Positions 31,717-64,000 are shown, counted from the stretch's first letter. The stretch: DNA of 64,000 nt from Gulosibacter sp. (GCF_052090685.1 NZ_JBQDBE010000015.1:3760-67759); one strand, 5' to 3'. Numbers and translations: made by a program. Notes: a model not told the origin generated them from the sequence alone.

Positions 31717-31782
31717 AGTACACTGATCGGAACTTTACTTCATTAGGTTGCGAACTGCGCCGATGTCCTAAGGAGTTATGGC

Positions 31783-32235: not shown

Positions 32236-32237
32236 GG

Positions 32238-42996: not shown

Positions 42997-44652
42997 CTAG
43001 CGCTTCAGGACGATCCCGCGCTCCGGGTCGAGCAGCAGCTTCCCGAGCCTTGAGGCGCCGGTAATGACCCGAGTGTTGCGATTCCACAGGGGACCGCGCT
43101 TCAACAACGCCGGCGTTGAATCATTGGTGCCGACACCGAACTTGAACACCGTGACGAATTCGCCGTCGGGACCGTGATCCATGTATTGGATTGATGCATT
43201 GGGAGCCATTTCGTACATGGTTTCCGTTGCGCCAAGCGGCGCTCCCTCTTGATCGGCATTAATCACGGTCATCGAACTCGTCGGGATGAGATTCACTGCG
43301 TTAAACGCCACTGGCCCGTCGCCGCGGATCAGCTGGCCGGTTGCGTCGAGTCGCGTTTCGCCAGGGAGAAGCCAGCGCTGCTCAATTTCGGTCTGCCCTT
43401 CCGACTGCACCCGGTCCCAAACCACCATGATGTCGGGACCGAATTCGAAGCTTACGCTTCGGGTCAGATACGTGCCCTCGACCGGGTTGGCGGTCATTGT
43501 GTATGACCGCCAATCCGCGGAGCAGTCCTCATACGTCAACGTACTGGGGTGACCGGTGCTCTTTTTCCGACGCGTATGCGCGATGAAGGTGCTGTGCGCC
43601 GAGGGGGAGCGCAGCCACATCCGATTATCATCATCGGTGTAGCCGTGAAATCCACCGTCTTTGATCATCTCGACACCGCCTGTGACGAAGCGAATAGAGA
43701 GGTGATCGAGGTGGCCGTGAATCTGACGCGGTTGTCCGAACCGCAGTGAATATGCAGACTCCTCATTGAACGGTCGATCATCGCCCCATCCCGAACGGCC
43801 GAACGCATAGCCATTGGTGTACGACTTGAACAACTCCTGGGGCTTCGGCCCAGACTCACCTGCCGTCGCGGCGTACTCGGCAACGGTTCTAAGGATGGAT
43901 TTCGCCGGTTGATGAGGAGTGTCGCCTATTTCGAACCACGTGCCGTCGGGGCGGGTTGCGTGCGCCAAAAACGTCGGCATTGCCTCGAGGCGAGCATTGA
44001 GTCGCGCCTTGATGGCATCCGAGAGCTCACCGTCACCCAAAAACGGGAGGTATTTTTGTATCTGCACAAAATTGAAGTGGTGATAGTGAACGGCCTGCTC
44101 GACGGTCACCCCTTCGTCATCCACGGTGCTGAGGATTGACACTTCCAGCCGCTTGAGGCCGAGTCGAGCGGCCTCTTCGTCGTCGAGATATCGACCCACA
44201 CTAATGAGCGCCTTGTCCTGGTCCACGCCGTGGTTCCAGTTTCCGGCGTAGTTTTCTTCGGCGGCCAAGAACTCGAGGTGTTCTCGCAGGTGGGGTCGCA
44301 GCCACGTGTCGTCCGAAACGCGCTCGGCCGCGGTCACCAAGACTTCGGTGCGAAGCGCTACCGCGTGTGCATCCCAGGCACGAGAGTTCTTTGGGTTCTC
44401 TTGCGGATTGTGCTCGAACCAGTCCGTGAGAATCTCGGTGACGACGGCCTCATCAGATTCGCTCAGTGGATTTGAAACGCAGACGATTCTCACGAATCCC
44501 AAGCAAGCCATCCACCATTTAAACGACTCGGGGGCGTCCGCGAACTCGTCGTAATCGATGCCGCCCTGCCACGGGAATGGATCAATATTGTACTTCGCAG
44601 GGGTAGGGACCAACCCGCCGCGAAACATCCGACGCTGACTCTTACGATCCAC
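42997..44652 (-). CDS. Heparinase II/III-like family protein, no signal peptide
   Basis: ...RAWDAHAVALRTEVL...NWNHGVDQDKALI...HGHLDHLSIRF...WLRSPSAHST... The N-terminus MDRKSQRRMFRGGLVPTPAKY has no hydrophobic leader. Confidence 0.7.
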   Translation of the reverse strand: MDRKSQRRMFRGGLVPTPAKYNIDPFPWQGGIDYDEFADAPESFKWWMACLGFVRIVCVSNPLSESDEAVVTEILTDWFEHNPQENPKNSRAWDAHAVALRTEVLVTAAERVSDDTWLRPHLREHLEFLAAEENYAGNWNHGVDQDKALISVGRYLDDEEAARLGLKRLEVSILSTVDDEGVTVEQAVHYHHFNFVQIQKYLPFLGDGELSDAIKARLNARLEAMPTFLAHATRPDGTWFEIGDTPHQPAKSILRTVAEYAATAGESGPKPQELFKSYTNGYAFGRSGWGDDRPFNEESAYSLRFGQPRQIHGHLDHLSIRFVTGGVEMIKDGGFHGYTDDDNRMWLRSPSAHSTFIAHTRRKKSTGHPSTLTYEDCSADWRSYTMTANPVEGTYLTRSVSFEFGPDIMVVWDRVQSEGQTEIEQRWLLPGETRLDATGQLIRGDGPVAFNAVNLIPTSSMTVINADQEGAPLGATETMYEMAPNASIQYMDHGPDGEFVTVFKFGVGTNDSTPALLKRGPLWNRNTRVITGASRLGKLLLDPERGIVLKR

Positions 44653-44767: not shown

Positions 44768-46030
44768 GTGCGAGTTCTACTGCTCACTCACTACTTTGTT
44801 CCCGAGACGGGGGCCCCGCAAAAGCGATGGGATGCGCTCATCCGCGAATTCGTGGCTGCCGGGCACGAGGTAGCAGTGCTGTGCCCACCGCCTCACCACC
44901 CAAATGGCCGGGTCGAAGAACGATTCCACCGCTATTATGCGCCGGGATCCTCCGACCGAGCAGATAACGGTGCGGCGGTGTATCGCGTCGGCTTGCTTCG
45001 CCACGGCGGCGATATTGTCACCCGCTCCCTCGACCACCTCTTTGCCGCGCAGCGCATGATTACACGCGGCGGCAGGCTCATTCGTACAGGCCGGGTGCGC
45101 CCGGATGTGATCATCGCGACGGCGCCGGCGGTACCCACACTGCTTGCCGGACAGTGGCTCGCCAAGCGGTTTCGCATTCCCTATGTGGTCGAGATGCGGG
45201 ATGCGTGGCCCGATCTCATTACGCACGTCGAAGGCATGGGAACGAGTAACGTCGCGGTGTCGTTTGCGAAGCGTGCGATTCACTCGGGAGTGACCTGGCT
45301 GCAGCGTTCCGCCGACCGGGTCGTGTCAACGACGAAGACATTCGCGGGCGTGCTCGAAAGCCGTGGGATACGAAACGTCGCGGTGGTGCGCAATGGCTCG
45401 GATGCCCGCGCGATGCGGGCGATGCCGTCTGCATCCGATAATCACACGGAATTGCGGGCGCTCTATATCGGCACCATGGGCCGGAGCCAAGGCCTCGAGA
45501 TGATCGTGCGCGCGACGGCAAAGCTTAATCGACAAGGCGTCCCGGTCGACGTAAGACTCGTAGGGGAGGGGCACGATCGTGAGGGTCTCGTCGATCTGAA
45601 CAAGTCACTCGGCAATCCCGTGACAATTCTCGACGCCGTCCCACGCGACGAGGTTGCGCAACACTATGCGTGGGCGGACACGACGATCGCGTCATTGCGT
45701 GACTGGGAGCCTTTCACCTGGACGGTTCCTTCCAAGCTGTATGAGCTCTTGTCCACCGGGCGTCACGTCACCGGCATCCTCAGCGGCGAAAGCGCCGAAT
45801 TACTCTTTGAAGCCGGAGGCGGTGACGTTGTCGCGCCCGGCAATGAACAACAACTCATTGAACTGTGGCGCGACCTCGCGACTCACCGCGACCGGTTGGA
45901 AGTCGGCGACTCTGGCCGTGTTTGGGTGACGAACAATGTGCAGTTCGACGACCTCGCGGCGTCGTACCTGGAAGTCCTCGAACGCGTTGTTCACGGTGAA
46001 AACGAGTCGCAACGAGAGGAATCGCGATGA
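44768..46030 (+). CDS. GT4-family glycosyltransferase (WbuB-like), paralog A2
   Basis: MRVLLLTHYFVPETGAPQKRW... is collinear with 38528-39757. Well over half of residues are identical by eye. Confidence 0.85.
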   Translation: MRVLLLTHYFVPETGAPQKRWDALIREFVAAGHEVAVLCPPPHHPNGRVEERFHRYYAPGSSDRADNGAAVYRVGLLRHGGDIVTRSLDHLFAAQRMITRGGRLIRTGRVRPDVIIATAPAVPTLLAGQWLAKRFRIPYVVEMRDAWPDLITHVEGMGTSNVAVSFAKRAIHSGVTWLQRSADRVVSTTKTFAGVLESRGIRNVAVVRNGSDARAMRAMPSASDNHTELRALYIGTMGRSQGLEMIVRATAKLNRQGVPVDVRLVGEGHDREGLVDLNKSLGNPVTILDAVPRDEVAQHYAWADTTIASLRDWEPFTWTVPSKLYELLSTGRHVTGILSGESAELLFEAGGGDVVAPGNEQQLIELWRDLATHRDRLEVGDSGRVWVTNNVQFDDLAASYLEVLERVVHGENESQREESR

Positions 46031-47793
46031 AGCTCCGTCGACCCTGGGCGCAGAATGCAGCGCTCACGGCCCAAACCGTCCGTGAACACATCGTTGATGA
46101 CCCGGTACAGCTTGCACTGCAGATCTCCCGGCGACTGCCCGTGCAAGCTCGCAGCGCGCTCGGCAATGGCCTCGCCAAGATCACCAATCGAGGTGGCGGA
46201 GTTCTCGAAACCATTGGCCATGCAATCGCTGGCGACCGTGAGCGAGCCAACCAAACACTCGACGATGCGGTGAACGTTGACGTCACTGATCGCAGGGCAA
46301 GGGCTTCGCGTCGTATCGCTCACCTTGCGGATGTGGCATTGTCGTTGGGGCAACCTGACCGGGCGCAAGAGATGCTCGCATCCGTTCCGAGGGCTGAGCG
46401 AAAGTCTGTGTGGTTCGCGGTCGCTTCCCGCATTGCCCTGTACCGGGGCGACCACGGCGGTGCCGTCGAGTTCGCGTCCCGACACCCCCGGAACGAATCG
46501 CTCGCGAAACGGATGTTCGGGGAACAGCAGGTGTTCGCGGGTTATGTCCCCGAACTCCCTGCCGAATCGAGCTACATTCCCCGCCCGGGCAGCGTTTTAC
46601 ACGTCCTCACGAACTCGGCACCGCATACCTCGAGTGGGTATGCGCAGCGCAGCCATTCAATCCTGAAATCCGTGCAGCAACTCGGTCACGAGGTTGCCGC
46701 AGTCACTCGACCCGGGTATCCGGTCCAGGTTGGGGTGCCGTGGGCGGCTGGTGAGGATGTGGTTGAGGACATTCGATACATCAGGTTATTGCCAGCGACG
46801 CTCGGGCAAGGGTTGAAGGAGCGCGTTGACCAACATGCGCGCCTCCTTGCGGAAGAGGTCCGAAAGTTTCGCCCGGCCGTGTTGCACACTACGACGCACT
46901 TCACGAATGCACTCGCGGTCGGCGCGGTGGCGCGCGCATTCGGTATCCCGTTCGTGTACGAAGTGCGCGGCCAACTTGCCGACACGTGGGCATCCACTCG
47001 CGGGCCGGAAGCGCTGGAGTCGCAACGCTACCGTGAGTTCCAAGCACGCGAGCTCGATGCCGCGAAAGCGGCCGATCACGTCGTCACGCTTGGCGCCATG
47101 ATGAAACAGCGGCTCATCGACGGCGGAGTCCCCGAAATCAATATCTCGGTGTGTCCGAACGCGGTCGGTGTGCCCTTCACCGATGACCCACCAGGGCAGG
47201 CGGATGCGCGCGCCCGCTTGGGTATTCAGCCGGATGCGCAGGTCGTCGGCACAGTCTCGAGCATCGTCGACTATGAGGGGCTTGACCTCCTCGTGCGAGC
47301 GGTCGCGAAACTGGCGCCGACGAACCCGAAACTGCGGTTGCACATTGCGGGTGACGGTGTCGCGTTGCCGGGACTCAAAGTACTTGCCGAGCGGCTCGGC
47401 ATCGCAAACATTTGCGAGTTCCCGGGCCGCGTGCAGCGTCCCGAAGCCATTTGGCACCACGCGGCCCTGGACCTGTTCGTCGTGCCGCGGCGCGATCTCA
47501 GCGTGACGCGGAGCGTGACACCAATGAAATCGGTTGAGGCTTCGGCAGTGGGTCGGCCCGTAGTCGCATCCAACCTGCCCGCGTTGCAAGAGCTCGTGGT
47601 CGATGATGAAACGGGGCTGCTCTTCGAAGCCGAAAACGTCGACGCGCTCGCTGACGCACTCTCATCACTACTTGCCGACCCTGAGCGGCGGGCAAAGATG
47701 GGCGCTGCCGCTCGAGAATGGGTCAAGGACGGTCGCACGTGGTCAGCGAATGCCCTCACATACGAACATGTGTACCGCGAATTGACGAGGTAG
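46027..47793 (+). CDS. GT4-family glycosyltransferase with helical N-extension, paralog B2
   Basis: MKLRRPWAQNAALTAQTVREHIVDDP...VLHVLTNSAPHTSSGYAQRSHSIL... is collinear with 41145-42971. It has an ATGA overlap with the upstream gene. Confidence 0.8.
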   Translation: MKLRRPWAQNAALTAQTVREHIVDDPVQLALQISRRLPVQARSALGNGLAKITNRGGGVLETIGHAIAGDRERANQTLDDAVNVDVTDRRARASRRIAHLADVALSLGQPDRAQEMLASVPRAERKSVWFAVASRIALYRGDHGGAVEFASRHPRNESLAKRMFGEQQVFAGYVPELPAESSYIPRPGSVLHVLTNSAPHTSSGYAQRSHSILKSVQQLGHEVAAVTRPGYPVQVGVPWAAGEDVVEDIRYIRLLPATLGQGLKERVDQHARLLAEEVRKFRPAVLHTTTHFTNALAVGAVARAFGIPFVYEVRGQLADTWASTRGPEALESQRYREFQARELDAAKAADHVVTLGAMMKQRLIDGGVPEINISVCPNAVGVPFTDDPPGQADARARLGIQPDAQVVGTVSSIVDYEGLDLLVRAVAKLAPTNPKLRLHIAGDGVALPGLKVLAERLGIANICEFPGRVQRPEAIWHHAALDLFVVPRRDLSVTRSVTPMKSVEASAVGRPVVASNLPALQELVVDDETGLLFEAENVDALADALSSLLADPERRAKMGAAAREWVKDGRTWSANALTYEHVYRELTR

Positions 47794-47803: not shown

Positions 47804-48598
47804 ATGGCACGATTTCGCAAGGTCGTGAACAAAGCAACAGGGCTCGTGCCGACGAAGCTTCGCAATCGAGCAAAAGCCGTCGGTAAAGCCGCGCTGGATG
47901 CAATGCCCGACGGGCTCGAATCACAGGTCCGGACGGCGTTTGGACGTAAGGGTACTGTTCGCGTGCTCGGACCAGCTGACCCGCTCGATCTCGAGGTGCG
48001 CGAAGAACCGCAACAGAAGTCCACTAAGGCACGTAAGAAGAAAACAACGACACGGAAGACAGCTGTCGCGGGGCGCGCGGCCGGGGCGGGCAGCGCATCC
48101 CGACACGACGCGCCGGAGCGATTGCATCGTGCTCTATTCGGAGCCACCGCACCGGCCCGAACCGAAGCCGGAGGGCGCCCCGTTGCGGGAATTCTCGGCC
48201 GTGATCTCCGCAGTGTGCTCGAAGAGAGTTCACACCGCGTCGTTCCGCTGATACCTGGCACGGCACGGGCTGCCGCCGCGATCGCCGAAGTCGTGATAGT
48301 CGATTTGGCGGCCTTCAACGGCCCGTGGTCCGGCGCATTGGATGCCGCTGGAGTTGCGTTGTACGACGAGTTGGAAGATGCGATTACCACTGCAGTACAG
48401 AAAGGCATTACGACCTGGGTCGTTCTTCGCGGTGACGATCTGCATCGCCTCGGCGCACTCCAGCTCCGACGCTTGGAGTCGGTCGAGGTGGTTGACCCCA
48501 CCAATGAACGCGAACGCGAACACTTTACCGAAGATGCCGGTGCGGATGCGCCGGAGGGAATCATCGACATCTTGCGGAGTTTGGGGGGTGCACAATGA
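47804..48598 (+). CDS. Companion protein 1: basic N-terminal helix + low-complexity linker + DUF3880/CgeB-N-like domain
   Basis: MARFRKVVNKATGLVPTKLRNRAKAVGK...; the C-domain is ...RPVAGILGRDLRSVLEES...AEVVIVDLAAFNGPWSGAL...TTWVVLRGDD. It has an ATGA overlap with the 740-aa gene. Confidence 0.6.
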   Translation: MARFRKVVNKATGLVPTKLRNRAKAVGKAALDAMPDGLESQVRTAFGRKGTVRVLGPADPLDLEVREEPQQKSTKARKKKTTTRKTAVAGRAAGAGSASRHDAPERLHRALFGATAPARTEAGGRPVAGILGRDLRSVLEESSHRVVPLIPGTARAAAAIAEVVIVDLAAFNGPWSGALDAAGVALYDELEDAITTAVQKGITTWVVLRGDDLHRLGALQLRRLESVEVVDPTNEREREHFTEDAGADAPEGIIDILRSLGGAQ

Positions 48599-50817
48599 GC
48601 AAGACGAAGGTGCTGCTGTACGGCGATGTCGATCTCAACGTGATCGACGGGTCAGCGATTTGGTTACCCGCGATCGCCGAAGCGTGGTCGAAAGCGGGTT
48701 CCGAGGTGCACGTGCAACTCAAGGCCGTGGAAAAACGGGACCTGCTTACGGGCCCGCTCCGGGCACTGCCCAACGTCACGGTGCTCGAGGCGAATCCGCC
48801 GCGGTCACAATCTGCGCTGCAACCGACCGATTTATCGGACCGGCTTATTGAGTTGGATGCACAACATCACTTCGACGTCGTGATGGTCCGCGGGATTAAT
48901 GCGTGTCTTGCCCTCACGAATAAGGGCGTGCTGAGTGACAAACTGTGGTCATATGTCACCGAATTCGGCTACGCCAGTGAGACGTTCGACGCCGTGCAGC
49001 GCACGCAGATCGCAACCATTGCGCGCGGCAGCCGCGTGATGCTCGCGCAAACGGCTGCGGCACGATCCGTGCTCGAGGCACGCGTGCCCGAAGCGGCCGG
49101 CCGTACTGAAATCCTTGGGCCGATGATTCCGGACGAGCTGGAACCGAATGCCGACGGCACCCGCGGAAATAAGCCGCTCGAACTCGTATACGCGGGTAAA
49201 TTTGCCCGCGCTTGGCGCACCGATTTGATGCCAGACATTGTTGCGGAACTGGCTTCGCTGGGTGTTCCCGCGCACCTCACAATGATTGGCGACAAGGTTC
49301 ACAACGAGCCTCAGCATCCGGGATGGGCCGCAAACATGCGTGCGGTTATGGCCAAGGGTGATGCTGCCGTGAAATGGGCTGGGGCGAAGAGTCGCGAGGA
49401 AAGTTTACGACTGGTCTCGCAGTCGGATCTGGCACTGGGGTGGCGCACCGACGACCTCGACCTCAGCCTTGAAATCTCCACAAAGGTGCTCGAAAGCTCG
49501 GCAGTCGGGGTCGCATCCATCGTCAACCGCACCACGATGCACGAAGAACTGCTTGGCGGTGACTACCCGCTTTTTGTCGACGCTCGCCAGGACTCAGCTG
49601 CCGATATTGCGAGGAAAATTGCGGAAGCACTGCCGCAACTCGAGACGCTATCGGCGCGGGTACGCGCGGTATCGGACCCCTACCGACTGAGTCGACGGGC
49701 AGAAGATCTTCAGCGGTACCTCTCTCGTTGGGGTACGCAAGGGCGCCGAATAGAAAGTGGGGAGGCTCGAGCCGAAACAGCGCCAACATCTTCCTCTACT
49801 GCTGGGCTAACATCACTGGCGACCGCAAAGACGCTGAAAGTGGGACTCGCGGGGCATGACCTCAAATTCGCTGGCGAGCTCATTGAGATGCTCCGTCGTG
49901 ATTCCGCCATCGAGTTGCGCATCGACAAATGGGCAGGCTTGCACAAGCACGATGAATTGGCTTCGCAGCGGCTCGTCGATTGGGCCGATGTAGTGATCTG
50001 TGAGTGGGCCGGCGCTAATTCCGTGTGGTACTCCCAGCACAAACGGCCGGGACAGCGCCTGTTCGTCCGGCTCCATATGTTCGAGTTGCGAGGGCACTGG
50101 CTCCCGCAGATTGCGGTCGATCAGGTCGATCAGTTCATCGCTGTCTCAGAGCACTATCGGCAGTACATCATCGATGAACTCGGCGCGGAACCCGAGCGTG
50201 TCAGGGTTATCCCGAACGCCATCAGCATTGCCGATCTTGATCGCGAGCCAATCGAAGGACGCGAGTTCCGCCTGGGGATCGTCGGAATCGTGCCGCTGCG
50301 CAAGCGACTCGATCGTGCGGTGGCGCTCTTGCGGAGGCTGCGTGCTCACGACGATCGCTTTACCTTGCACGTGCGAGGCAAGATGCCATGGGAACACCCG
50401 CACGAGTGGCGAAAGGCTCGCCAGCGCGAGAGTTATATGGATTTGTTCTCGAAAATTGGCGGTTCTGACCTCAACGAGTCGATTGCCTTTGAGCCATTTG
50501 GTGCGGACATGGGCAACTGGTATCGGAAGATTGGCTGGGTTCTTTCACCGTCGACGGTTGAGAGTTTTCACCTCGCGCCAGCGGAGGGAATGGCCTCTGG
50601 AGCGGTTCCACTGCTCTGGGATCGACCCGGTGTGCGGGATATTTTTGGAGATGATTTCGTAGTCGCAAATAATGATGAGGCTGCAAAATTCGTTCTGGAT
50701 TCAGTCGATGACGTTTCGCGGCTGGCGCGGTATCGGTCTCTCGCTCGCAGAGTTGCCGAAAACTTCGATGAGAAAGAGGTCGAACGATTGTGGAGTGCGC
50801 TAATCCACGTCGAGTAG
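48595..50817 (+). CDS. Dual GT-B-domain glycosyltransferase (candidate bifunctional polymerase), paralog P1
   Basis: The N-half is VLLYGDVDLNVIDGSAIWL...LVYAGKFAR...LEISTKVLES. The C-half is ...VVICEWAGANSVWYSQH...GIVGIVPLRKR...STVESFHLAPAEGMASGAVPL (EX7E). Confidence 0.75.
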   Translation: MSKTKVLLYGDVDLNVIDGSAIWLPAIAEAWSKAGSEVHVQLKAVEKRDLLTGPLRALPNVTVLEANPPRSQSALQPTDLSDRLIELDAQHHFDVVMVRGINACLALTNKGVLSDKLWSYVTEFGYASETFDAVQRTQIATIARGSRVMLAQTAAARSVLEARVPEAAGRTEILGPMIPDELEPNADGTRGNKPLELVYAGKFARAWRTDLMPDIVAELASLGVPAHLTMIGDKVHNEPQHPGWAANMRAVMAKGDAAVKWAGAKSREESLRLVSQSDLALGWRTDDLDLSLEISTKVLESSAVGVASIVNRTTMHEELLGGDYPLFVDARQDSAADIARKIAEALPQLETLSARVRAVSDPYRLSRRAEDLQRYLSRWGTQGRRIESGEARAETAPTSSSTAGLTSLATAKTLKVGLAGHDLKFAGELIEMLRRDSAIELRIDKWAGLHKHDELASQRLVDWADVVICEWAGANSVWYSQHKRPGQRLFVRLHMFELRGHWLPQIAVDQVDQFIAVSEHYRQYIIDELGAEPERVRVIPNAISIADLDREPIEGREFRLGIVGIVPLRKRLDRAVALLRRLRAHDDRFTLHVRGKMPWEHPHEWRKARQRESYMDLFSKIGGSDLNESIAFEPFGADMGNWYRKIGWVLSPSTVESFHLAPAEGMASGAVPLLWDRPGVRDIFGDDFVVANNDEAAKFVLDSVDDVSRLARYRSLARRVAENFDEKEVERLWSALIHVE

Positions 50818-50873
50818 GCGACACGCCGTGAGTTCCTCATTTACGTCTCATTTACCTTGCGTTTACTCGAGGT

Positions 50874-51611
50874 ATGAAGAACGCTCGAGGTCGAGTTCGC
50901 TGGCAACATCAGATTCTTATCGTGCTCATCGCGGTGAGTGTGCTGCTCGTGCTCGCTTCGCTGATGATGTCCGTGCTCGGCGTTTCCTACACGTCACCGA
51001 TCCGGGAGTTTTTCGATGTGTCGGATGAACGGAACCTCCCTACCTGGTGGAACGCGGGACTCCTGTTAATCGCGGGATCAACCACCGCTGCCGTCGGGCT
51101 TGCTCGGGTCGTTGCAAAATTTGACGGCAAGCTTGGATGGCTTCCATGGGGTGGACTTTCAGCCATGCTTGGAGCAATGTCGCTGGATGAGTTCGCGGGA
51201 TTTCACCAGCTTCTCGGACTGGTGTGGGAGAAATTCGTCGGGGAGAACCCGCTCAGTTCATTCGGGTGGTTCATTATCGGCGTACCGCTCGCGATCCTGC
51301 TCGTGTTGTTCATCTGGCTTTGTGCACGGCAACTTCCGAAGGAGTCTTCACGAGCGTTCATGATAGGCATCGCGGTGCTCTTGTTCGGCGCAATCGCAAT
51401 CGAAGCGTTCCCGATGCTGATGGACTTTGGTCGAAACTCAACCGCGTACTACCTCACGTATCACGTTGAAGAACTCGTAGAGAAGATCGGCGCCTCAGTG
51501 CTCGTCGTGGCCCCGCTTTACGCGATCGGACTCAGCCGCAACGGTGATGGATACACGGTAAGATTCGAGCGCCGCCGCAGCGATATCAAACCTTCGAATG
51601 CAATTGCATGA
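50874..51611 (+). CDS. Polytopic membrane protein (about 6 TM), unknown function
   Basis: Hydrophobic segments run throughout (ILIVLIAVSVLLVLASLMM, WWNAGLLLIAGSTTAAV, FIIGVPLAILLVLFIWL, IGIAVLLFGAIAIEAF...). It sits between the two duplicated modules. Confidence 0.55.
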   Translation: MKNARGRVRWQHQILIVLIAVSVLLVLASLMMSVLGVSYTSPIREFFDVSDERNLPTWWNAGLLLIAGSTTAAVGLARVVAKFDGKLGWLPWGGLSAMLGAMSLDEFAGFHQLLGLVWEKFVGENPLSSFGWFIIGVPLAILLVLFIWLCARQLPKESSRAFMIGIAVLLFGAIAIEAFPMLMDFGRNSTAYYLTYHVEELVEKIGASVLVVAPLYAIGLSRNGDGYTVRFERRRSDIKPSNAIA

Positions 51612-51686
51612 GGCCTCCCAATTCGCAGTGAGCGGAAGTTGGCTCGCGAGGTTCCAAGAGGCTATGGCGTAATCTGATCGCTACCA

Positions 51687-52472
51687 ATGGCGACCGGGGC
51701 TAAATTGAGCGAGGACATGTCGAAACCAAAGAAATTCGTTCGAACGATTGGCAAGGCCCTCCCTACTCGCATTCGGAAGGGCGTCAAGCGCGTCGCGAAA
51801 AAAGTACTGCCGCAACGTGCGCAATCAACCGTCGCCCCGGTCTCCGATTCAACGTCTAATGCACAGGCACAGCCTCCACTTGATCCGCTGAGCCTTGCAG
51901 CACAGCCAACCGGTGCTTCGGACAAGGGCAGACAACAGCCAATCGCAGGTCGTGCGGCAGCTGGCACTACGCTGGACCCCGAGGCTTCGGCTCGACTGGG
52001 GCGAGCCATGTTCGGTCACGCGGCACCCGCTCGCACCGCGCAAGGCGGCAGGCCTGTTGCCGGTATTTTCGCAAGCGACTTGCGCGACGCACTCTGCACT
52101 GCGGGCCACGAAGTCAGTGAGTTCGTGCCAGGGATTACCGGTGCGCTTGCCGACAGCGCTGAAGTCCTCGTGATCGACCTCGCCGGGTTCACCGGTGTCT
52201 GGGATGGCGCCCTTGAACCGACCGGCGTGAGCTTGATTCGTGAAGTGACCGACGCCGTTGAAGCCGCACGCTATCGCGGGGTTACCTGCTGGCTCGTCGT
52301 TCGAGGCGATCAGCCGCACTATCACGGTGCAATTCTGTTGCAAGAGTCGACACTTTTGCAGCCGCTTTTGCCGGGCCAGCAATCAACCGAACAAACTCAT
52401 TTCACGGAGAACCCGGGTAACGCACCCGTGGGAATCGTTGACATCATCCGATCATTGGAGGTCGCAGCATGA
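51687..52472 (+). CDS. Companion protein 2 (paralog of 47804-48598)
   Basis: ...MSKPKKFVRTIGKALPTRIRKGVKRVAKKVL...RPVAGIFASDLRDALCTAG...AEVLVIDLAGFTGVWDGAL...TCWLVVRGDQ. It has an ATGA overlap with the 738-aa gene. The true start may be ATG 51717. Confidence 0.6.
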   Translation: MATGAKLSEDMSKPKKFVRTIGKALPTRIRKGVKRVAKKVLPQRAQSTVAPVSDSTSNAQAQPPLDPLSLAAQPTGASDKGRQQPIAGRAAAGTTLDPEASARLGRAMFGHAAPARTAQGGRPVAGIFASDLRDALCTAGHEVSEFVPGITGALADSAEVLVIDLAGFTGVWDGALEPTGVSLIREVTDAVEAARYRGVTCWLVVRGDQPHYHGAILLQESTLLQPLLPGQQSTEQTHFTENPGNAPVGIVDIIRSLEVAA

Positions 52473-54685
52473 CGCGGGTCGTCCGAGTTTTTCTCTACGG
52501 TGATGTCAATCTCAACATCATCGACGGCTCCGCAATCTGGCTGCAATCGATGGCACAGGTTTGGGCGGGCACGGGCGCACAAGTCGACGTGCAGCTCAAG
52601 GCTCCCGAGACGCGCGCGCTCTTGTCGGGACCTCTACGCAAGATTCCCGGTGTCACGGTGCTCGATGCCACTCCAGAATCGGCCGATGCACTGACACACG
52701 CTGAAGTCGTAGCCATTGCCGAAGCTCGTGATGCACAAGCGCCGTATGACGTCGTTATGGCTCGCGGCCTGCAAGTGTGTCGGGCGCTTTCCGAGCAGCC
52801 ATCACTCGCAAGCAAGCTTTGGGCATATGTCACCGAGTACGCCTATGGTTCGGAAAGTTTCGACGAAGATCGCCAGCGTATTTTTAGTGAGCTCGCTGGC
52901 CGCGCGCGCTTCGTGCTGGCACAGACCGATGAGGCACGTTCGGTACTCGAATCGTTGATTCCGGAGGCGGCGGGGAAGGCGCTGCTATTGGGGCCGATGA
53001 TCCCGGATACGTTGACGCCAAAAGTTGCTGCGCAAGAGGCCCTCGGTACCGCTGAGAATCCACTTCGCCTTATCTACACCGGCAAGTTCGCCAAGGACTG
53101 GCGAACGGATTTGATGCCCGAGCTCGTTCCCGAGCTTGAGAAACTCGGCGTCATTGCCGAACTCACGATGGTCGGCGACAAGGTGCACAACGAGCGAAGC
53201 GACCCGAATTGGGCCTTGCGGATGAACGCTTTGATCAACCGCAAGCAGCCACGAGTTCACTGGGCGGGCGGGAAAGATCGAGCAACGAGCCTCGAGATGG
53301 TGTCGAATTCTCACATTGCGCTGAGCTGGCGAAGCACTCAGCTCGACCTCAGCCTCGAGATGTCGACCAAGGTACTCGAAGCGAGTGGACTTGGCGTCCC
53401 ATCGATCATTAATCGCACGCCAATGCACCAGAACCTCCTGGGCGAGGACTACCCGCTCTTGGTCGATGCACGTGCCGATTCTGTGGCAGACATCGCATCC
53501 CGGATTCGAGATGCGCTGCCTGAACTGCACGGGCTATCAGAGCGAGTCCATGTCGCGACCGAGCAGTACCGGATGGCGAGCCGCGTCAGTGACCTCATGC
53601 GCTACCTGCGCCGAATCGGCATTGTCGCGAACGACCAAGGTTTCTCGGATGCAGTTGAGCTGCCCGAGCGCCTCCGCCGGTCTAATCGGCCGCTGCGAGT
53701 GCTCTTGGCGAGCCACGACCTTAAATTTGCTGGCGAGCTCGTGACAATTCTGCAGCGACTGCGCGGCGTTGAGCTGCGCTTTGACCACTGGGAAGCACTG
53801 CACCGTCACGACGCTGCCGCATCACAAGAATGTCTTGACTGGGCCGACATTGTCATTTGCGAGTGGGCCGGGTCGAATGCCGTGTGGTACTCGCAACATA
53901 AGCGTCCGGACCAGCGACTCGTCGTGCGCCTGCACATGTTCGAGTTCCGTGGGCATTGGCTGAGCAAGATCGACACCGACAACGTCGACCTGTTCATCGC
54001 CGTGTCGGAGTACACGCGTGAGCTAATCGAGGAGCAGCTCGAAGTGCCTGCTATGAAGGTTGCGGTCATCCCGAATGCCGTGAGCTTCGCCGACTTCAGA
54101 CGGCCAGCGGTGGCGGGTCGCGAACATCGAATCGGGCTTGTCGGTTTCGTGCCGCTACTCAAACGACCCGACCGGGCGATCGAGCTGCTCCGGCGCCTGC
54201 GTGAGCAAGACGACCGTTTTACCCTGCACATCCGCGGCCGCATGCCCTGGGAATATCGCCACCTCTGGCAAAAGCCCGAGCAGCGCGAAGCGTATCTGGA
54301 CCTCTTTGCGAGGCTCGGCGCGGACAACCTGCATACGGCGATCGCATTCGAGCCGTTCGGCGCCGATATGGCGAACTGGTACCGCAAGATAGGCTGGATG
54401 CTGTCGCCGTCAACCACCGAGAGTTTTCACCTCGCCCCGGCTGAAGGTACCGCATCCGGGGCACTGCCCGTCTTCTGGGAACGACCGGGCGTCCGGCAGA
54501 TCTTTGGCGACGAGTTTGTCGTCCCGGACACGAAAGCAGCGGCTGAGTTCATTCTCGCGACGAACCGCGACGCAGACATTCGGGCTCGTCGCATCGAGAT
54601 TGCTCGCAGCGTCGTCGCACCATTTGACGAGCAGATCGTTGAAGAAGCTTGGGTGGACGCGGTCTGCGGTCCCGAGCAACGATAG
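52469..54685 (+). CDS. Dual GT-B-domain glycosyltransferase, paralog P2
   Basis: Collinear with 48595-50817: VFLYGDVNLNIIDGSAIWL...LIYTGKFAK...LEMSTKVLEAS...IVICEWAGSNAVWYSQH...STTESFHLAPAEGTASGALPV. Confidence 0.75.
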   Translation: MTRVVRVFLYGDVNLNIIDGSAIWLQSMAQVWAGTGAQVDVQLKAPETRALLSGPLRKIPGVTVLDATPESADALTHAEVVAIAEARDAQAPYDVVMARGLQVCRALSEQPSLASKLWAYVTEYAYGSESFDEDRQRIFSELAGRARFVLAQTDEARSVLESLIPEAAGKALLLGPMIPDTLTPKVAAQEALGTAENPLRLIYTGKFAKDWRTDLMPELVPELEKLGVIAELTMVGDKVHNERSDPNWALRMNALINRKQPRVHWAGGKDRATSLEMVSNSHIALSWRSTQLDLSLEMSTKVLEASGLGVPSIINRTPMHQNLLGEDYPLLVDARADSVADIASRIRDALPELHGLSERVHVATEQYRMASRVSDLMRYLRRIGIVANDQGFSDAVELPERLRRSNRPLRVLLASHDLKFAGELVTILQRLRGVELRFDHWEALHRHDAAASQECLDWADIVICEWAGSNAVWYSQHKRPDQRLVVRLHMFEFRGHWLSKIDTDNVDLFIAVSEYTRELIEEQLEVPAMKVAVIPNAVSFADFRRPAVAGREHRIGLVGFVPLLKRPDRAIELLRRLREQDDRFTLHIRGRMPWEYRHLWQKPEQREAYLDLFARLGADNLHTAIAFEPFGADMANWYRKIGWMLSPSTTESFHLAPAEGTASGALPVFWERPGVRQIFGDEFVVPDTKAAAEFILATNRDADIRARRIEIARSVVAPFDEQIVEEAWVDAVCGPEQR

Positions 54686-54774
54686 GGGTGCGTGTTAGCC
54701 TAAGCGCTTGACGGGGCTTGAGATTCGCAAGTACCCGCGAAGCTTTGTCTGAACTGAAACAAGGGGTCCTCCGC

Positions 54775-56091
54775 TTGAAAATCGCAGTAATTGCACTTGG
54801 AAAGATCGGCCTGCCACTTGCAGTCCAGTTCGCCACAAAGGGTCACGAAGTCATCGGTGTTGATATCAACGCGACGACGGTCGACATGGTTAACCAAGCA
54901 AAGGAACCCTTTCCCGGCGAGTACCAGCTTCAAGAAAAGCTCGAAGAGACCGTCGGCAACGGCACCTTGAAAGCGACGACGAACTACGCTGAGGCCATTC
55001 CTGGGGCGGACGCCATTGTGCTCGTCGTCCCGCTGTTCGTTGACGAGAACGCGGTGCCGGACTTCGGCTGGATGGATGCTGCGACCAACGAACTCGCGGC
55101 CCACCTCACGCCTGGCACACTCATTTCGTTTGAGACCACGTTGCCGGTGGGAACCACCCGCACTCGCTGGAAGCCAATGATCGAAGAAATTTCGGGACTC
55201 AAAGAAGGCGAAGACTTCCACCTCGTGTTCTCGCCGGAGCGAGTACTTACCGGTCGAGTGTTTGCCGACTTGCGCAAGTACCCGAAGCTCATCGGTGCGC
55301 TGAGCGCCGAAGGGGCCGAGCGGGCGCGGGAATTCTACGAGGCAGTGCTTGACTTCGATGACCGCCCAGACCTGGAGCGAGAAAACGGTGTGTGGGACCT
55401 CGGGAGTGCTGAAGCATCCGAGCTGGCCAAACTCGCAGAGACGACCTACCGCGACGTCAACATCGGTCTTGCCAACGAGTTCGCTCGCTACGCAGGTGAA
55501 AACGGCATCGACATTTACCAGGTGATTGAAGCATCGAACTCTCAACCTTACAGTCACATCCACCGCCCCGGTATTGCGGTTGGTGGCCACTGCATCCCGG
55601 TGTATCCGCGGCTCTACCTCTGGAATGATCCGAAAGCAGAGATCGTTCGGACCGCCCGTGCGCTGAACGCGGACATGCCCAATTTTGCGATTGGGCTCCT
55701 GGCTGGTGCTCACGATACCGACCTCGAAGGCCAGAGCGTTGCCGTGCTCGGTGCTGCATACCGTGGCGGAGTCAAAGAGACCGCGTTCTCGGGGGTCTTT
55801 GCCACCGTTGAGGCACTCAAGGAACGTGGCGCGGTGGTTACCGTTCATGATCCGCTTTACACCGACGATGAACTCGCGGCATTCGGATTTGCTCCGTATC
55901 ACCTCGGTGAAAATGTTGATGCAGTGGTGATTCAAACTGACCACCAGGACTATAAAGATCTGACTCCGCAGAAGTTCCCTGGCATCCGAACGCTTGTCGA
56001 CGGTCGAAACGTCACGGACCCAGCGAAATGGGAAAGTGTGACCCGTCGAGTTATCGGTAAGCCTGGCATCGCTGCCGAGAGCACAAAGTAA
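54775..56091 (+). CDS. wbpA: UDP-N-acetyl-D-glucosamine 6-dehydrogenase-type nucleotide-sugar dehydrogenase (WbpA-like)
   Basis: KIAVIALGKIGLPLAVQFATKGHEVIGVDIN...ASELAKLAETTYRDVNIGLANE...AVGGHCIPVYP. The start was chosen at TTG 54775. The ORF-track start at 54718 is also TTG. Confidence 0.75.
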   Translation: MKIAVIALGKIGLPLAVQFATKGHEVIGVDINATTVDMVNQAKEPFPGEYQLQEKLEETVGNGTLKATTNYAEAIPGADAIVLVVPLFVDENAVPDFGWMDAATNELAAHLTPGTLISFETTLPVGTTRTRWKPMIEEISGLKEGEDFHLVFSPERVLTGRVFADLRKYPKLIGALSAEGAERAREFYEAVLDFDDRPDLERENGVWDLGSAEASELAKLAETTYRDVNIGLANEFARYAGENGIDIYQVIEASNSQPYSHIHRPGIAVGGHCIPVYPRLYLWNDPKAEIVRTARALNADMPNFAIGLLAGAHDTDLEGQSVAVLGAAYRGGVKETAFSGVFATVEALKERGAVVTVHDPLYTDDELAAFGFAPYHLGENVDAVVIQTDHQDYKDLTPQKFPGIRTLVDGRNVTDPAKWESVTRRVIGKPGIAAESTK

Positions 56092-56702
56092 TGGTTGACG
56101 CTCCCAACTATCGAGTCGTTGACTCCGCGGATGTCGCTGAGAATGCACAGATCGGCGACGGATCGTCAGTGTGGCATCTTGCGCAAGTTCGTGAAGATGC
56201 GGTGCTGGGTAAGAATTGTGTGATTGGTCGAGGCGCGTATATCGGTACCGGTGTAACGCTTGGTGATAACTGCAAGGTGCAGAATTATGCACTGGTGTAC
56301 GAACCAGCCGTTCTTGAGTCTGGGGTCTTCATAGGTCCAGCGGTGGTGCTCACGAATGACACCTATCCGCGCGCTATCAACCCGGACGGAACGCAGAAGG
56401 CCGCATCCGACTGGGATGCGGTTGGTGTGACTATCAAAACTGGCGCGGCGATTGGCGCACGTGCCGTCTGTGTTGCTCCCGTGACGATCGGTGCTTGGTC
56501 GCTGATCGCTGCAGGATCTGTGGTCACGAAGGACGTCCCGGATCATGCGTTGATAGCCGGCGTGCCAGCGAAGCAATTGGGCTGGGTTGGGAAGACGGGC
56601 CACCGTCTCATCGAACGTGACGGGGCACTCGTTTGCCCGGACACACATGACCGTTTTAGTGAGGTAGACGGAGCCCTCGTCGCCGAAAACCAAGGAGCCT
56701 AA
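56091..56702 (+). CDS. wbpD: Left-handed beta-helix N-acetyltransferase (WbpD/WlbB-like, UDP-2-acetamido-3-amino-2,3-dideoxy-glucuronate N-acetyltransferase)
   Basis: Hexapeptide repeats IGDGSSVWHLAQVREDAVLGKNCVIGRGAYIGTGVTLGDNCKVQNYALV...; TAATG overlap with wbpA. Confidence 0.75.
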   Translation: MVDAPNYRVVDSADVAENAQIGDGSSVWHLAQVREDAVLGKNCVIGRGAYIGTGVTLGDNCKVQNYALVYEPAVLESGVFIGPAVVLTNDTYPRAINPDGTQKAASDWDAVGVTIKTGAAIGARAVCVAPVTIGAWSLIAAGSVVTKDVPDHALIAGVPAKQLGWVGKTGHRLIERDGALVCPDTHDRFSEVDGALVAENQGA

Positions 56703-56704
56703 CC

Positions 56705-57802
56705 ATGGTGGATTTTATCCCTCCAGCGAAGCCAATTATCGGTGAAGAAGAGCGCGCCGCGGTAGATCGTGTGCTGCAGACCGGAATGATCGCCCAAGGC
56801 CCCGAGGTCAAGGCATTTGAAGAAGAATTTGCTGCTGCGCTGACCGCTGGCCGCACGGCGGTGGCAGTGAACTCTGGAACGTCTGGACTCCACCTCGCGC
56901 TACTTGCCGCTGGTATTGGCGTTGGAGACGAAGTAATTGTGCCGGCGTTCACCTTTGCCGCGACGGGTAACTCGGTTGCGCTGACCGGAGCGACACCGGT
57001 GTTCGTTGACATCGAACTTGATACCTACAACCTTGATCCAGCGCGCATCGAAGCTGCGATCACGCCCAAGACAAAGGCGATCATGCCGGTGCACCTCTAT
57101 GGCCATCCGGCCAATATGCCGGCAATTCTCGCAATCGCGGAAAAGCACGGACTGCAAGTGTTCGAGGACGCCGCACAGGCACACGGAGCGACGCTCAACG
57201 GTCAGCAGGTCGGTACGTTCGGTACGTGGGGCGTGTTCAGCCTCTACCCGACGAAGAACATGACTTCGGGCGAGGGTGGCATGGTGACCGTCGAGGATGC
57301 CGAAGTAGCACGCAGGCTCCGGCTACTTCGCAACCAGGGTATGGAAGTGCAGTATCAAAATGAGCTGGTCGGATTCAATAACCGAATGACCGACATTCAC
57401 GCTGCTATCGGTCGAGTTCAGCTCACGAAAGTTGCCGACTGGACCAAGCAGCGTCAAACAAACGCGGCTGCTCTGAATGCGGGCCTTCGTGACGTCAAGA
57501 CGCCGGTGGTGGCCGAAGGCGCTGAGCACGTTTACCACCAATACACCGTGCAGCTGCCGGAGGCACTCGTTGCGCAACGCACCGAACTGCTTGCGCGTCT
57601 CAAGGATGAGTTCCAGGTTGGTACCGGTGTGTACTACCCGGTGCCGACCAATGAGCTTCCGTCGTTCAACGTCGAAGCTGACCTCCCGAACACCAAGATC
57701 GCTGCAGCTTCGGTATTCTCACTGCCTGTGCATCCCTCATTGACCTCGGGGGACCTCGAGCGCATCATTGCTGCCGTGAATACTGTCGTCGAGGAGGCCT
57801 AA
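56705..57802 (+). CDS. wbpE: DegT/DnrJ/EryC1/StrS-family PLP aminotransferase (WbpE-like)
   Basis: ...FEEEFAA...AVNSGTSGLHLAL...VIVPAFTFAATGN...FSLYPTKNMTSGEGGMV (PLP-Lys region). Confidence 0.85.
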   Translation: MVDFIPPAKPIIGEEERAAVDRVLQTGMIAQGPEVKAFEEEFAAALTAGRTAVAVNSGTSGLHLALLAAGIGVGDEVIVPAFTFAATGNSVALTGATPVFVDIELDTYNLDPARIEAAITPKTKAIMPVHLYGHPANMPAILAIAEKHGLQVFEDAAQAHGATLNGQQVGTFGTWGVFSLYPTKNMTSGEGGMVTVEDAEVARRLRLLRNQGMEVQYQNELVGFNNRMTDIHAAIGRVQLTKVADWTKQRQTNAAALNAGLRDVKTPVVAEGAEHVYHQYTVQLPEALVAQRTELLARLKDEFQVGTGVYYPVPTNELPSFNVEADLPNTKIAAASVFSLPVHPSLTSGDLERIIAAVNTVVEEA

Positions 57803-57805
57803 GCC

Positions 57806-58774
57806 ATGACGCTTCGCACTGGACTGATCGGCCTCGGGATGATGGGGCGTCATCACGCTCGCGTCATGCGGGGGATTGAAGGAACCGAGTTGGTTGCAGT
57901 CGCTGACGCGATGGGTGACGCTCACGGTGTTGCCGAAGAACTGCCGCTTTTCGAAACCGTGGATCAGCTCATCGATTTCGGCGTTGATGCAGTTGTGTGT
58001 GCAGTCCCGACCGGAATGCACGAAGAGGTTGGTTTGAAACTCGCTTCAGCTGGCGTACACACGATGGTTGAAAAGCCCATCGCGCACAGCGTCGAAGCCG
58101 GTGAGCGCCTGGCGACAGCATTTAATGAACGTGGGCTGATCGGCGCGGTTGGACACATCGAGCGCTTCAACCCGGCGCTGCAGGAACTCCGTCGACGTAT
58201 TGATGCTGGTCAGCTTGGCGAGGTCTATCAAGTAGCGACGCGTCGCCAGGGACCGTTTCCCTCACGCATCGCTGACGTAGGAGTCGTCAAAGACCTTGCG
58301 ACGCACGACATTGATCTGACGGCGTGGTTGAACCGGACCAAGTATGCGGAGATCAATGCGAAGGTAGTCCGAATCACCGGTCGCGAACACGAAGACATGG
58401 TCGTGGCCGTCGGACAGCTAGAGAACGGCGTCATCGTCAATCACACTGTGAACTGGCTGTCGGCAGTCAAGGAGCGCACAACCGTGGTCACAGGGCAGAA
58501 TGGCGTGTTCATCGCCGACACGCTCACCGCGGACCTCACGTTCTACGAGAACGGCGAAGTCCGGAGCACGTGGCAGCCGGTCGAGAACTTCCGTGGAGTT
58601 ACTGAAGGTGACGTCATCCGATACGCGTTCCCGAAGCAGGAACCACTCAAGACAGAGCATGAAGCATTCCGAGATGCGATCCTCGGTAAAGAGAACACTC
58701 ACGTCAGCATGACCGAAGGACTTGAGACACTGCGGGTGGCCGAAGGGATGCTCGAAGCCTCGAGTGTGAAATAG
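57806..58774 (+). CDS. wbpB: Gfo/Idh/MocA-family oxidoreductase (WbpB-like)
   Basis: LRTGLIGLGMMGRHHARV...VCAVPTGMHEEV...VHTMVEKPIA. Confidence 0.8.
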   Translation: MTLRTGLIGLGMMGRHHARVMRGIEGTELVAVADAMGDAHGVAEELPLFETVDQLIDFGVDAVVCAVPTGMHEEVGLKLASAGVHTMVEKPIAHSVEAGERLATAFNERGLIGAVGHIERFNPALQELRRRIDAGQLGEVYQVATRRQGPFPSRIADVGVVKDLATHDIDLTAWLNRTKYAEINAKVVRITGREHEDMVVAVGQLENGVIVNHTVNWLSAVKERTTVVTGQNGVFIADTLTADLTFYENGEVRSTWQPVENFRGVTEGDVIRYAFPKQEPLKTEHEAFRDAILGKENTHVSMTEGLETLRVAEGMLEASSVK

Positions 58775-58883
58775 AAGGTCGCTTTCAGAATTGCTCGCGT
58801 GCGTGGCCTCGAAGCTGTATTCGGGATTTGACGCGATTTTTGGATGCGCAACACATTTAGAATGAAATAGAAAGGCACGCCGA

Positions 58884-59951: not shown

Positions 59952-60012
59952 AAGCCGCCAATCACGCAAAAATCCGCGCGCGGTAAATTAGGTTCTGAGC
60001 AATCAATTCTGG

Positions 60013-63659: not shown

Positions 63660-64000
63660 GGGTTTTTACTCCTAGAGCGGCAGTCGGTGCAATGTCGATC
63701 TTAATGGCCCACGGTGCGAGACGCTCGTCAACGTCGTTGCTTCCGTTGGGCAACGACCGAGGCATCTACTGAGGTTAGCAGCCGCGAACGCCCGCATTCA
63801 TCCGGTGAAGACTTGCCAGAACGATGCTGCCTAATGACGACTGCAGTTTCGTACGTCGGTATTGCCAGGACAGAGCCCGGCGCCGGCAAGCCGGGGATTC
63901 TAACGGTTACTGAAGTGCGATGTGCCGGCAGCGATTCGACAGATAAACATCCACGTTGAGGTAGTCTGCGCCAGCACCGTATTAAGTATGTTGTAATCGC

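Follow-up and report, generated by a model that had tools for sequence, protein, structure and literature searches.

A conserved actinobacterial gene pair of a dual GT-B glycosyltransferase and a small companion protein, a candidate membrane adaptor in wall polymer synthesis

We have analysed a stretch of 64,000 nucleotides (nt) from Gulosibacter sp. (GCF_052090685.1, NZ_JBQDBE010000015.1:3760-67759; here the window, with positions counted from its first letter), where positions 47,804 to 54,685 hold two copies of a gene pair. In each copy a small basic protein, which we call the companion (C1 and C2), is followed by a large glycosyltransferase (GT) with two GT-B modules, the dual GT (G1 and G2). 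The companion and the dual GT form a conserved actinobacterial two-gene cassette with near-obligate adjacency. We consider it moderately probable that the companion is a membrane-tethering adaptor of the soluble dual GT, and that the pair takes part in making a teichuronic-acid-like wall polymer of the N-acetylmannosaminuronic acid (ManNAcA) type, which is exported by an ATP-binding cassette (ABC) transporter and linked to peptidoglycan.

The pairing was surveyed in 80 genome loci around relatives of the dual GT and in other fetched loci, drawn from Micrococcales, Propionibacteriales, Corynebacterium, Actinomadura/Spirillospora and Nanopelagicales, all of whose open reading frames (ORFs) were searched with hidden Markov models (HMMs) of the companion. 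The first model placed a companion ORF ending at the GT start in every Micrococcales, Propionibacteriales and Corynebacterium locus, and after three iterations a companion was found to end at the start of 88 of 89 dual-GT genes, the 89th lying at a contig end. The GT start codon can overlap the companion TGA by 4 nt (NTGA) in 56 of 87 pairs, about one quarter being expected by chance. Taken from the other side, all seven companions that were looked up, five of them distant, have a dual-GT-type gene (722-736 amino acids, aa) directly downstream, with the qualification that the gene after the distant companion P0144 ends at 159 aa, at the contig edge. The co-occurrence survey that the earlier note on this DNA had proposed thus speaks for the pairing in both directions. 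Moreover, in one natural homologue, P0036, companion and dual GT are a single in-frame protein of 997 aa on one contig; its source is a short metagenomic assembly, for which some caution is due. Near-universal adjacency, gene overlap and natural fusion together argue for a physical partnership.

In the window all five ORFs of the region were found on the plus strand where the earlier note had put two collinear pairs (Table 1), and the overlap claimed for both pairs can be read at both junctions, CAATGAGC for C1/G1 and GCATGACG for C2/G2, the companion TGA sharing 4 nt with the GT ATG (ATGA). Shine-Dalgarno-like GGGGGG/GGAGG motifs stand 6-12 nt 5' of both large-gene starts; the six-G run before G1 (TTTGGGGGGTG at 48577-48598, 6-12 nt ahead of the C1 stop and the G1 start) is read as a ribosome-binding site. 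The family alignment suggests that the true start of C2 may be its second methionine, at 51717. Aligned pairwise, as had been advised, the companions share 40% of their residues over 261 aa (E 2e-54) and the large proteins 56% over 735 aa (E 0), a similarity far above chance, by which the two modules are paralogous.

Neither C1 nor C2 has a match in Pfam or NCBIfam, even at E <= 1, and the companions of Micrococcus luteus are named 'hypothetical protein' in NCBI and UniRef, which agrees with the earlier remark that no described role was known for a stand-alone protein of this kind. A word-indexed homologue search with C1 returned C1 itself and one relative only. It was an exhaustive HMM search of 1.84 billion representatives that revealed the family, with 71 relatives, 15 of them below 1e-30 and nearly all stand-alone proteins of 200-370 aa; the companions are a real, unannotated protein family. 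AlphaFold predicts for C1, in this order, three basic helices (residues 2-46), a disordered linker, a helix (97-112) and a compact alpha/beta domain in which helices alternate with five beta strands; the predicted local distance difference test score (pLDDT) is ~96 over residues ~100-230. The linker carries two short motifs conserved in the family alignment, DPLGL and AGRAAA (also given as DPLxL and AGRAAG). The invariant residues (D167, G173, W175, W205, R209/G210 and H240-T242-E243) lie, according to alignment and model, at or past the ends of strands 3-5.

Comparison of the companion model with the PDB by Foldseek gave nothing significant (best E 0.026, to generic flavodoxin-like folds), and a profile search against PDB sequences was no more successful. 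Of all detectable relatives, the one nearest to the folded domain appears to be the N-terminal domain (aa ~80-172) of a CgeB-like GT encoded elsewhere in the window (26770-28695). The iterated companion HMM matches this stretch with an independent E-value (i-E) of 1.8e-8 among 8529 ORFs and finds in that set 13 CgeB-like proteins at i-E 1.8e-8 to 1e-5; the companion domain also aligns with orthologues of this GT in related loci. The iterated model could have drifted, and the strength of the CgeB match is moderate. An hhalign comparison of the companion with the N-domain of the CgeB-like GT gave 64% probability (E 6.7e-5, 89 columns), against 0.1% in the control with the dual-GT profile. The earlier note had likened the companions to a DUF3880/CgeB-type module, and of this the likeness of AEVVIVDLAAFNGPWSGAL to DLLFVESAWNGNGGAW, one of them belonging to the CgeB-like GT at 26770-28695, held at the profile level (HMM, hhalign), while the DUF3880 part fell away, neither C1 nor C2 matching DUF3880 (PF12996) at E <= 1. 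In the CgeB-like GT itself DUF3880 is sub-threshold (E 0.23, aa 163-233) and lies mostly downstream of the companion-matching stretch, so that the correct label is the N-half of a CgeB-type GT-B enzyme rather than DUF3880. We hold with moderate confidence that the companion domain resembles the N-terminal Rossmann-like half of CgeB/YkvP-type GTs. Unlike these enzymes, it has neither the donor-binding C-domain nor an EX7E-type motif and stays below all Pfam thresholds; having no donor-binding domain, it cannot act as a transferase by itself.

G1 and G2, on the other side of the pair, are predicted from sequence and model to be soluble acidic two-module glycosyltransferases. Profile searches might have shown the large proteins not to be glycosyltransferases at all; Pfam instead gives GT domains in both halves of the chain (~1-385 and ~415-740 in G1). 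In the N-half this is PF13524, the CgeB/YkvP-type GT-B C-domain (cut-off 25 bits), which is above threshold in G1 (233-372, 29.3 bits), slightly below it in G2 (24.8 bits), and precomputed for most dual-GT homologues. In the C-half of both proteins GT4-type domains PF13439, PF00534 and PF13692 are found at ~454-713 (484-698 in G1); PF13692 (cut-off 27 bits) scores 44.7 bits in G1 and 47.4 in G2, and PF00534 (cut-off 26.4 bits) 36.7 and 44.5, all above cut-off. The EX6-7E motifs ascribed earlier to both halves are there: LEISTKVLES holds E293-E300 (EX6E, N-half) and ESFHLAPAEGMASG holds E656-E664 (EX7E, C-half), with all four glutamates invariant in a family alignment of 22 sequences. A profile search of PDB sequences matched the C-half to TarM (E 3e-5) and returned no relative of the N-half.

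The structural picture comes from an AlphaFold model of the P0036 fusion, which is 53% identical and was modelled with just 6 sequences over the GT part, pLDDT and the predicted template modelling score (pTM) serving as readout (mean pLDDT 84, pTM 0.68). In the model one GT-B unit follows the other, and both consist of two beta/alpha domains; the alternation runs through residues 672-997. The top Foldseek match of the model, over 850 aligned columns (E 7e-13), is the capsule multienzyme polymerase 8qoy; many GT4 enzymes come next, among them BshA, SenB and PimA (template modelling score, TM-score, to target 0.7-0.78). Pfam, the model and these matches concur with the earlier assignment of both halves to GT-B. 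Hydropathy and isoelectric point (pI) calculation give no hydrophobic segment and a pI of ~6 for G1 and G2, which points to soluble enzymes.

The dual-GT family, publicly annotated merely as 'glycosyltransferase', extends across Actinomycetota: Micrococcus, Citricoccus, Zhihengliuella, Gulosibacter, Arthrobacter and relatives, Corynebacterium, Rothia, Propionibacteriales, Actinomadura/Spirillospora and Nanopelagicales. One member, P0079 of Tessaracoccus sp. SD287 (locus L022, 1223 aa), carries a third CgeB-like GT module at the C-terminus, and several more homologues measure ~1190-1280 aa, so that the family varies in its module content. M. luteus, Gulosibacter, M. antarcticus and Zafaria also encode a protein of ~600-760 aa (stop-to-stop ORFs), whose C-terminal ~330 residues are homologous to the dual-GT C-half (HMM scores 269-313) and whose N-terminal part has no Pfam match. 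The M. luteus member adjoins ABC transporter genes; in the window this protein has no counterpart. The GT part of the cassette is by itself ordinary, a member of the multi-module GT-B enzymes of ABC-dependent glycan pathways.

How the companion may reach the membrane is suggested by its N-terminus. An N-terminal hydrophobic segment of transmembrane character lies within the first ~50 residues of 44 of the 66 companion representatives, and six of the 66 combine the hydrophobic segment with RLRQIGQ-type coiled-coil-like repeats. The subgroup of the window companions has no hydrophobic segment; there the net charge over the ~60 N-terminal residues is +6 to +18 (+10 over the N-terminal 57 aa of C1, +11 in the N-terminal region of C2), and the remainder of the protein is acidic or neutral. 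Most simply read, the sequences suggest that a transmembrane helix is replaced by polybasic helices at the same position, as two modes of membrane binding. In M. luteus the teichuronic acid synthetase (TUAS), which transfers glucose (Glc) and ManNAcA, is a membrane-bound, phospholipid-dependent complex; phospholipase abolishes its activity and phospholipid vesicles partly restore it (PMC3005890). A tethering or scaffolding role is favoured because the dual GT must act on membrane-linked acceptors yet has no membrane element, and also because of the polybasic or transmembrane N-termini and the phospholipid dependence of the M. luteus synthetase. In function the companion would thus be analogous to WbdD, which recruits the dual-GT polymerase WbdA (PMC11231755).

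Of the two GT modules, one CgeB/YkvP-type and the other GT4/TarM-like, we propose that each would extend a polyprenyl-linked chain on the cytoplasmic side of the membrane by one sugar, belonging either to an alternating repeat or to an adaptor region. Through the stop/start overlap the non-catalytic companion would be made in step with the enzyme. Its N-terminus would bind the membrane, by a transmembrane helix in most relatives and by strongly basic helices in the window, and its C-terminal domain, a stand-alone acceptor-side half of a CgeB-type GT-B, would hold the enzyme there, and possibly the lipid-linked acceptor too. What the analysis shows is the two gene families, their architecture and their near-obligate adjacency; membrane tethering, contact between the two proteins, a role as polymerase and the identity of the sugars are inferred.

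The surrounding genes are consistent with such a product. From ~23 kb to its end the window reads as one wall-glycopolymer locus (~40 kb), with a ligase of the LytR-CpsA-Psr (LCP) family at its left edge, which implies attachment of the product to peptidoglycan, and with an ABC transporter predicted to export the polymer. Only 10 nt separate position 47793 from the start of C1, and the upstream GTs stand in the same operon-like run. Behind G2, genes with the Pfam domains UDPG_MGDP_dh, Hexapep, DegT, GFO_IDH_MocA and Epimerase_2 could, by analogy with the Wbp pathway of P. aeruginosa (outlined in PMC13274773), provide a 2,3-diacetamido uronic acid donor together with N-acetylmannosamine or its uronic acid, ManNAc(A). 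Judging by these neighbouring genes, UDP-ManNAcA and UDP-ManNAc3NAcA (its 2,3-diacetamido counterpart) are plausible donors. None of the 52 related loci with full flanks lacks a UDP-sugar 6-dehydrogenase, and 43 of them have a 2-epimerase, which ties the cassette to uronic acid donors of the ManNAcA type. The invariant core of these 52 loci consists of companion, dual GT and UDP-sugar 6-dehydrogenase; GT4 and the ~600-aa GT, the latter present in 40, are not invariant. The M. luteus locus has an LCP gene at its head, a GT4, companion and dual GT twice, a ManNAc dehydrogenase, a ~600-aa GT, an ABC transporter (ATPase and permease pair) and an epimerase, and this is the gene set expected for its Glc-ManNAcA teichuronic acid. 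Both there and in the window the multi-module GT is encoded with a Wzm/Wzt-type ABC-2 transporter.

The nearest functional parallel is the WbdD-WbdA system of E. coli O9a and Klebsiella O3, where WbdD, in O9a, has a membrane-binding helix as well as a site at which the dual-GT polymerase WbdA is recruited, and sets chain length (PMC11231755). There, as would by analogy be the case here, a separate protein brings a soluble polymerase of two GT-B (GT4) modules to the membrane, this scaffold forming the assembly complex, and export is of the Wzm/Wzt ABC-2 type, as in the window. The differences are as clear. WbdD, a kinase/methyltransferase terminator, has its anchor at the C-terminus and possesses a long coiled coil, whereas the companion has an N-terminal anchor, a half-GT-B-like folded part and no sequence relationship to WbdD; Pfam and NCBIfam searches detect no catalytic domain in it, and the window companions have no coiled coil. 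The host of the window system is Gram-positive, and its product is wall-linked by an LCP ligase.

In appearance the companion recalls Alg14/Alg13 and bacterial split GT-B enzymes, in which an anchored N-terminal GT-B half is encoded beside, and works with, a separate transferase polypeptide. The Alg13/14 partner, however, is the missing C-terminal half only, so that one GT-B is formed, whereas here the partner has two modules, both complete by the P0036 model, by length and by motifs. According to our analysis the pair would work like a scaffold and its polymerase (WbdD/WbdA), looks like one half of a split GT-B (Alg14), and differs from both in the features that define them. As for the polymerase of Actinobacillus pleuropneumoniae serotype 3 capsule (8qoy), it likewise has several transferase modules per chain and makes an alternating acidic polymer; the low overall TM-score (0.23) means that its domains are arranged differently. 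Enzymes of this type, which we take to combine a GT with TagF-like phosphotransferase and tetratricopeptide repeat (TPR) domains, have to our knowledge no separate companion. Bacillus subtilis Tua (TuaA-H) gave no equivalog match in the window, TuaC scoring just 37.8 and 29.2 bits against the ~600-aa GTs (cut-off 550), and G1 and G2 have no Tua match at all in NCBIfam. The Streptomyces utr teichuronic locus was considered as the closest system and rejected, being built on TarS/TarM-like single GTs (PMC13274773).

Several points weigh against the companion as a tethering adaptor of a polymerase. The purified M. luteus synthetase was reported with subunits of 54 and 52.5 kDa, to which no genes were assigned there (PMC3005890); these sizes match neither the dual GT (~80 kDa) nor the companion (~27 kDa expected here, ~23-27 kDa in general). 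Four further GTs of the window locus, two GT4 and two of ~600 aa, are present, and any of them could be the true polymerase. Of the 52 related loci only 9 have an ABC transporter at a distance of up to 10 kb. The interaction of companion and dual GT is suggested by adjacency, overlap and one fusion, in whose model the linker motifs are below pLDDT 50 and not ordered, and the pTM of 0.68 is what would be expected of a rigid dual GT with an unplaced companion. The basic N-terminus could bind an anionic polymer instead of the membrane. Finally, Foldseek returned no significant companion relative of solved structure, and the link to CgeB depends on moderate profile scores, such as the hhalign probability given above.

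The subunit sizes also speak for another view of the division of labour, namely that the dual GTs are adaptor, linkage-region or side-chain transferases and the companion is their partner, while the GT4 and the ~600-aa TPR-GT4 enzymes polymerise. M. luteus makes a simple disaccharide repeat and yet its locus encodes six GT modules (two dual GTs, a GT4 and a ~600-aa GT), and the frequency of the ~600-aa GT in related loci is also in favour of this view. It is nevertheless the dual GT, with companion and dehydrogenase, that is invariant among these loci, which GT4 and the ~600-aa GT are not; two unlike modules in one chain would suit an alternating alpha/beta repeat, and structurally the closest match is to a multienzyme that polymerises capsule. 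We regard this division of labour as rather unlikely, though it deserves attention before the other alternatives.

Distant relatives that combine a transmembrane helix, the RLRQIGQ repeats and the conserved domain raise the thought that the companion is mainly a chain-length regulator, a ruler or stopper like the coiled-coil scaffolds of O-antigen synthesis, with the terminating enzyme domain left out. The membrane helix, WbdA recruitment and length control united in WbdD of E. coli O9a (PMC11231755) would be a precedent, and the transporter ATPase of the window, at only 291 aa with its ABC_tran domain, has little room for a glycan-binding module. The repeat, however, is confined to the six representatives mentioned; the window companions and their close relatives, which are without a coiled coil, have ~45 aa of basic helices and a disordered linker, and no kinase, methyltransferase or other terminator domain is detectable with Pfam or NCBIfam. 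Such a role as the main one seems to us unlikely.

It may also be asked if the companion is the working half of a split GT-B in the manner of Alg14/Alg13, pairing in trans with the donor domain of the dual-GT N-half and so creating or re-targeting an active site, possibly for initiation on a lipid-linked primer as against elongation. Its domain does align with the N-terminal half of CgeB-like enzymes, the dual-GT N-half has a CgeB-type C-domain (PF13524) and an N-domain of its own that is unrelated to the companion, and the invariant residues at the ends of strands 3-5 are on the ligand side of a Rossmann-like sheet. Yet both GT modules already have complete N- and C-domains in the P0036 model, so no half is missing, and we find this arrangement improbable. 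Most improbable is a companion of flavodoxin-like fold that is merely co-transcribed, be it an unrelated small enzyme or a regulator that binds nucleotides: the weak Foldseek matches to flavodoxin-like or TIR-like and nucleoside-processing folds (ThiM, SARM1 TIR, CMP N-glycosidase and CD38, E 0.03-0.1) which suggest it are none of them significant, the adjacency, overlap and fusion argue for physical partnership, and the membrane anchors are unlike a soluble metabolic enzyme.

Returning to the tethered pair as we favour it, its doubling in the window had been described as a tandem duplication of a two-gene module. Two paralogous modules are indeed present; the duplication is old, however, and covers a set of four genes. 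G1 is 64% identical to its orthologue in locus L001 and 60% to an M. luteus copy, against 57% to G2, while the M. luteus copies share 69% identity between themselves; DNA identity between the two window modules is ~66% and patchy only. A recent local tandem duplication is ruled out by the closer similarity of G1 to the outside orthologues. The doubling therefore happened more than once and is old in the window, and the doubled pairs of M. luteus arose independently. Identity is 59% between the upstream GT4 genes (38528-39757 and 44768-46030) and 57% between the ~600-aa TPR and GT4 genes (41145-42971 and 46027-47793), so that the four-gene set occurs twice; the order GT4, ~600-aa GT, companion, dual GT is contiguous in locus L001. 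Most likely the two sets of the window serve two linkages, or two polymers or polymer segments. C2-G2 adjoins the 2,3-diacetamido-uronic acid genes, and an unrelated metagenomic locus (L170, 4029-8125) has a transmembrane-type companion and a dual GT beside WbpD/E/B/A-like genes, comparable to C2-G2 with 54718-58774; by analogy both placements would fit a different donor for each set.

The protein between the two pairs is polytopic, as had been said, with at least three strongly hydrophobic segments by hydropathy. It has no significant Pfam match and no homologue in 85 related loci. In Microbacterium sp. A93 and M. luteus its homologues have serA on one side and a class-I tRNA-synthetase-like gene on the other. 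They form a small Micrococcales family of 'hypothetical proteins' found elsewhere outside glycan loci. With no homologue in related loci and relatives near serA, it was rejected as a conserved cassette component and is probably an inserted passenger.

Some other features of the locus may be recorded (Table 1). Heparinase II/III-like genes, one of which stands in the window, come directly after the dual GT in two unrelated loci (L169, 3620-5392; L172, 8319-10082), and an alginate-lyase-like gene flanks the M. luteus locus (L003, 21909-22193); a lyase-like gene is a recurrent partner of uronic-acid polymer synthesis loci. The G+C content is 45-50% at 28000-36000 and 60000-64000 and ~60% elsewhere in the window, and these low-G+C stretches are probably horizontally acquired parts of the glycan locus. 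Antisense to the gene for the WbpA-like dehydrogenase (54718-56091) runs an ORF of 530 aa without Pfam match (54700-56292, minus strand), most likely one of the spurious long ORFs typical of high-G+C DNA.

Table 1. Features of the window, and of related loci where a locus is named
Feature	Position	Strand	Remarks
LCP ligase	23224-24315	-	LytR_cpsA_psr, E 3.7e-43; left edge of glycan locus
DUF6270 protein	24234-25097		E 7e-62; adjoins LCP ligase
CgeB-like GT	26770-28695	+	641 aa; PF13524 E 3e-23 at 267-399
Protein without Pfam match	29473-31716	-	747 aa; low-G+C stretch
Multi-module GT	32238-35537		1099 aa; low-G+C stretch
GT			513 aa; low-G+C stretch
ABC transporter ATPase	36466-37341	-	291 aa; ABC_tran
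ABC-2 permease	37313-38302	-	ABC2_membrane; five hydrophobic segments
GT4	38528-39757	+	409 aa; Pfam
UDP-ManNAc-type 6-dehydrogenase	39856-41118	+	Pfam
~600-aa GT	41145-42971	+	608 aa; Pfam
Heparinase II/III-like protein	42997-44652	-	Between two GT sets
GT4	44768-46030	+	420 aa; Pfam/NCBIfam
TPR + GT4, ~600-aa GT	46027-47793	+	588 aa; Pfam/NCBIfam
Companion C1	47804-48598	+	264 aa; pI 9.7
Dual GT-B glycosyltransferase G1	48595-50817	+	740 aa; pI 6.0; no hydrophobic segment
Polytopic membrane protein	50874-51611	+	245 aa
Companion C2	51687-52472	+	261 aa; pI 8.6
Dual GT-B glycosyltransferase G2	52469-54685	+	738 aa; pI 5.8
WbpA-, WbpD-, WbpE-, WbpB-like genes and UDP-GlcNAc 2-epimerase	54718-59951	+	
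Protein without Pfam match	60013-62121	-	702 aa; low-G+C stretch
~600-760 aa relatives of dual-GT C-half	L002 15417-17243; L006 3635-5521; L009 17388-19205; L019 12239-14512	-	
Homologues of 50874-51611 protein	L086 10001-10810; L087 8001-8759		

Many Actinomycetota have teichuronic acids as major anionic polymers of their walls, and that of M. luteus has been a biochemical model for decades, its synthetase having been purified as a membrane complex. In the literature that we searched no gene assignment for this synthetase was found, and the conserved core described here, which includes the M. luteus locus, offers testable gene candidates for the never-cloned enzyme. Our analysis also defines an unannotated family, having no Pfam or NCBIfam model, as an apparent dedicated membrane partner of a soluble multi-module glycosyltransferase. 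The combination of an anchor, a stand-alone acceptor-side GT-B half and an adjacent complete dual GT was not found described in the literature on DUF3880, teichuronic acid and M. luteus. It would extend the scaffold-plus-polymerase logic of Gram-negative O-antigens to Gram-positive wall polymers, with a different kind of scaffold.

A bolder suggestion, which we ourselves regard as quite doubtful, is that the companions are a hitherto unrecognised class of non-catalytic, membrane-anchored 'half-glycosyltransferase' subunits, whose acceptor-side GT-B domain is paired in trans with a complete two-module polymerase. If this were true, the companion would present the lipid-linked primer or, in the coiled-coil relatives, measure the chain, and the initiation, elongation and length control of actinobacterial teichuronic-type polymers would need a pseudoenzyme derived from a split GT-B and not a terminator enzyme.

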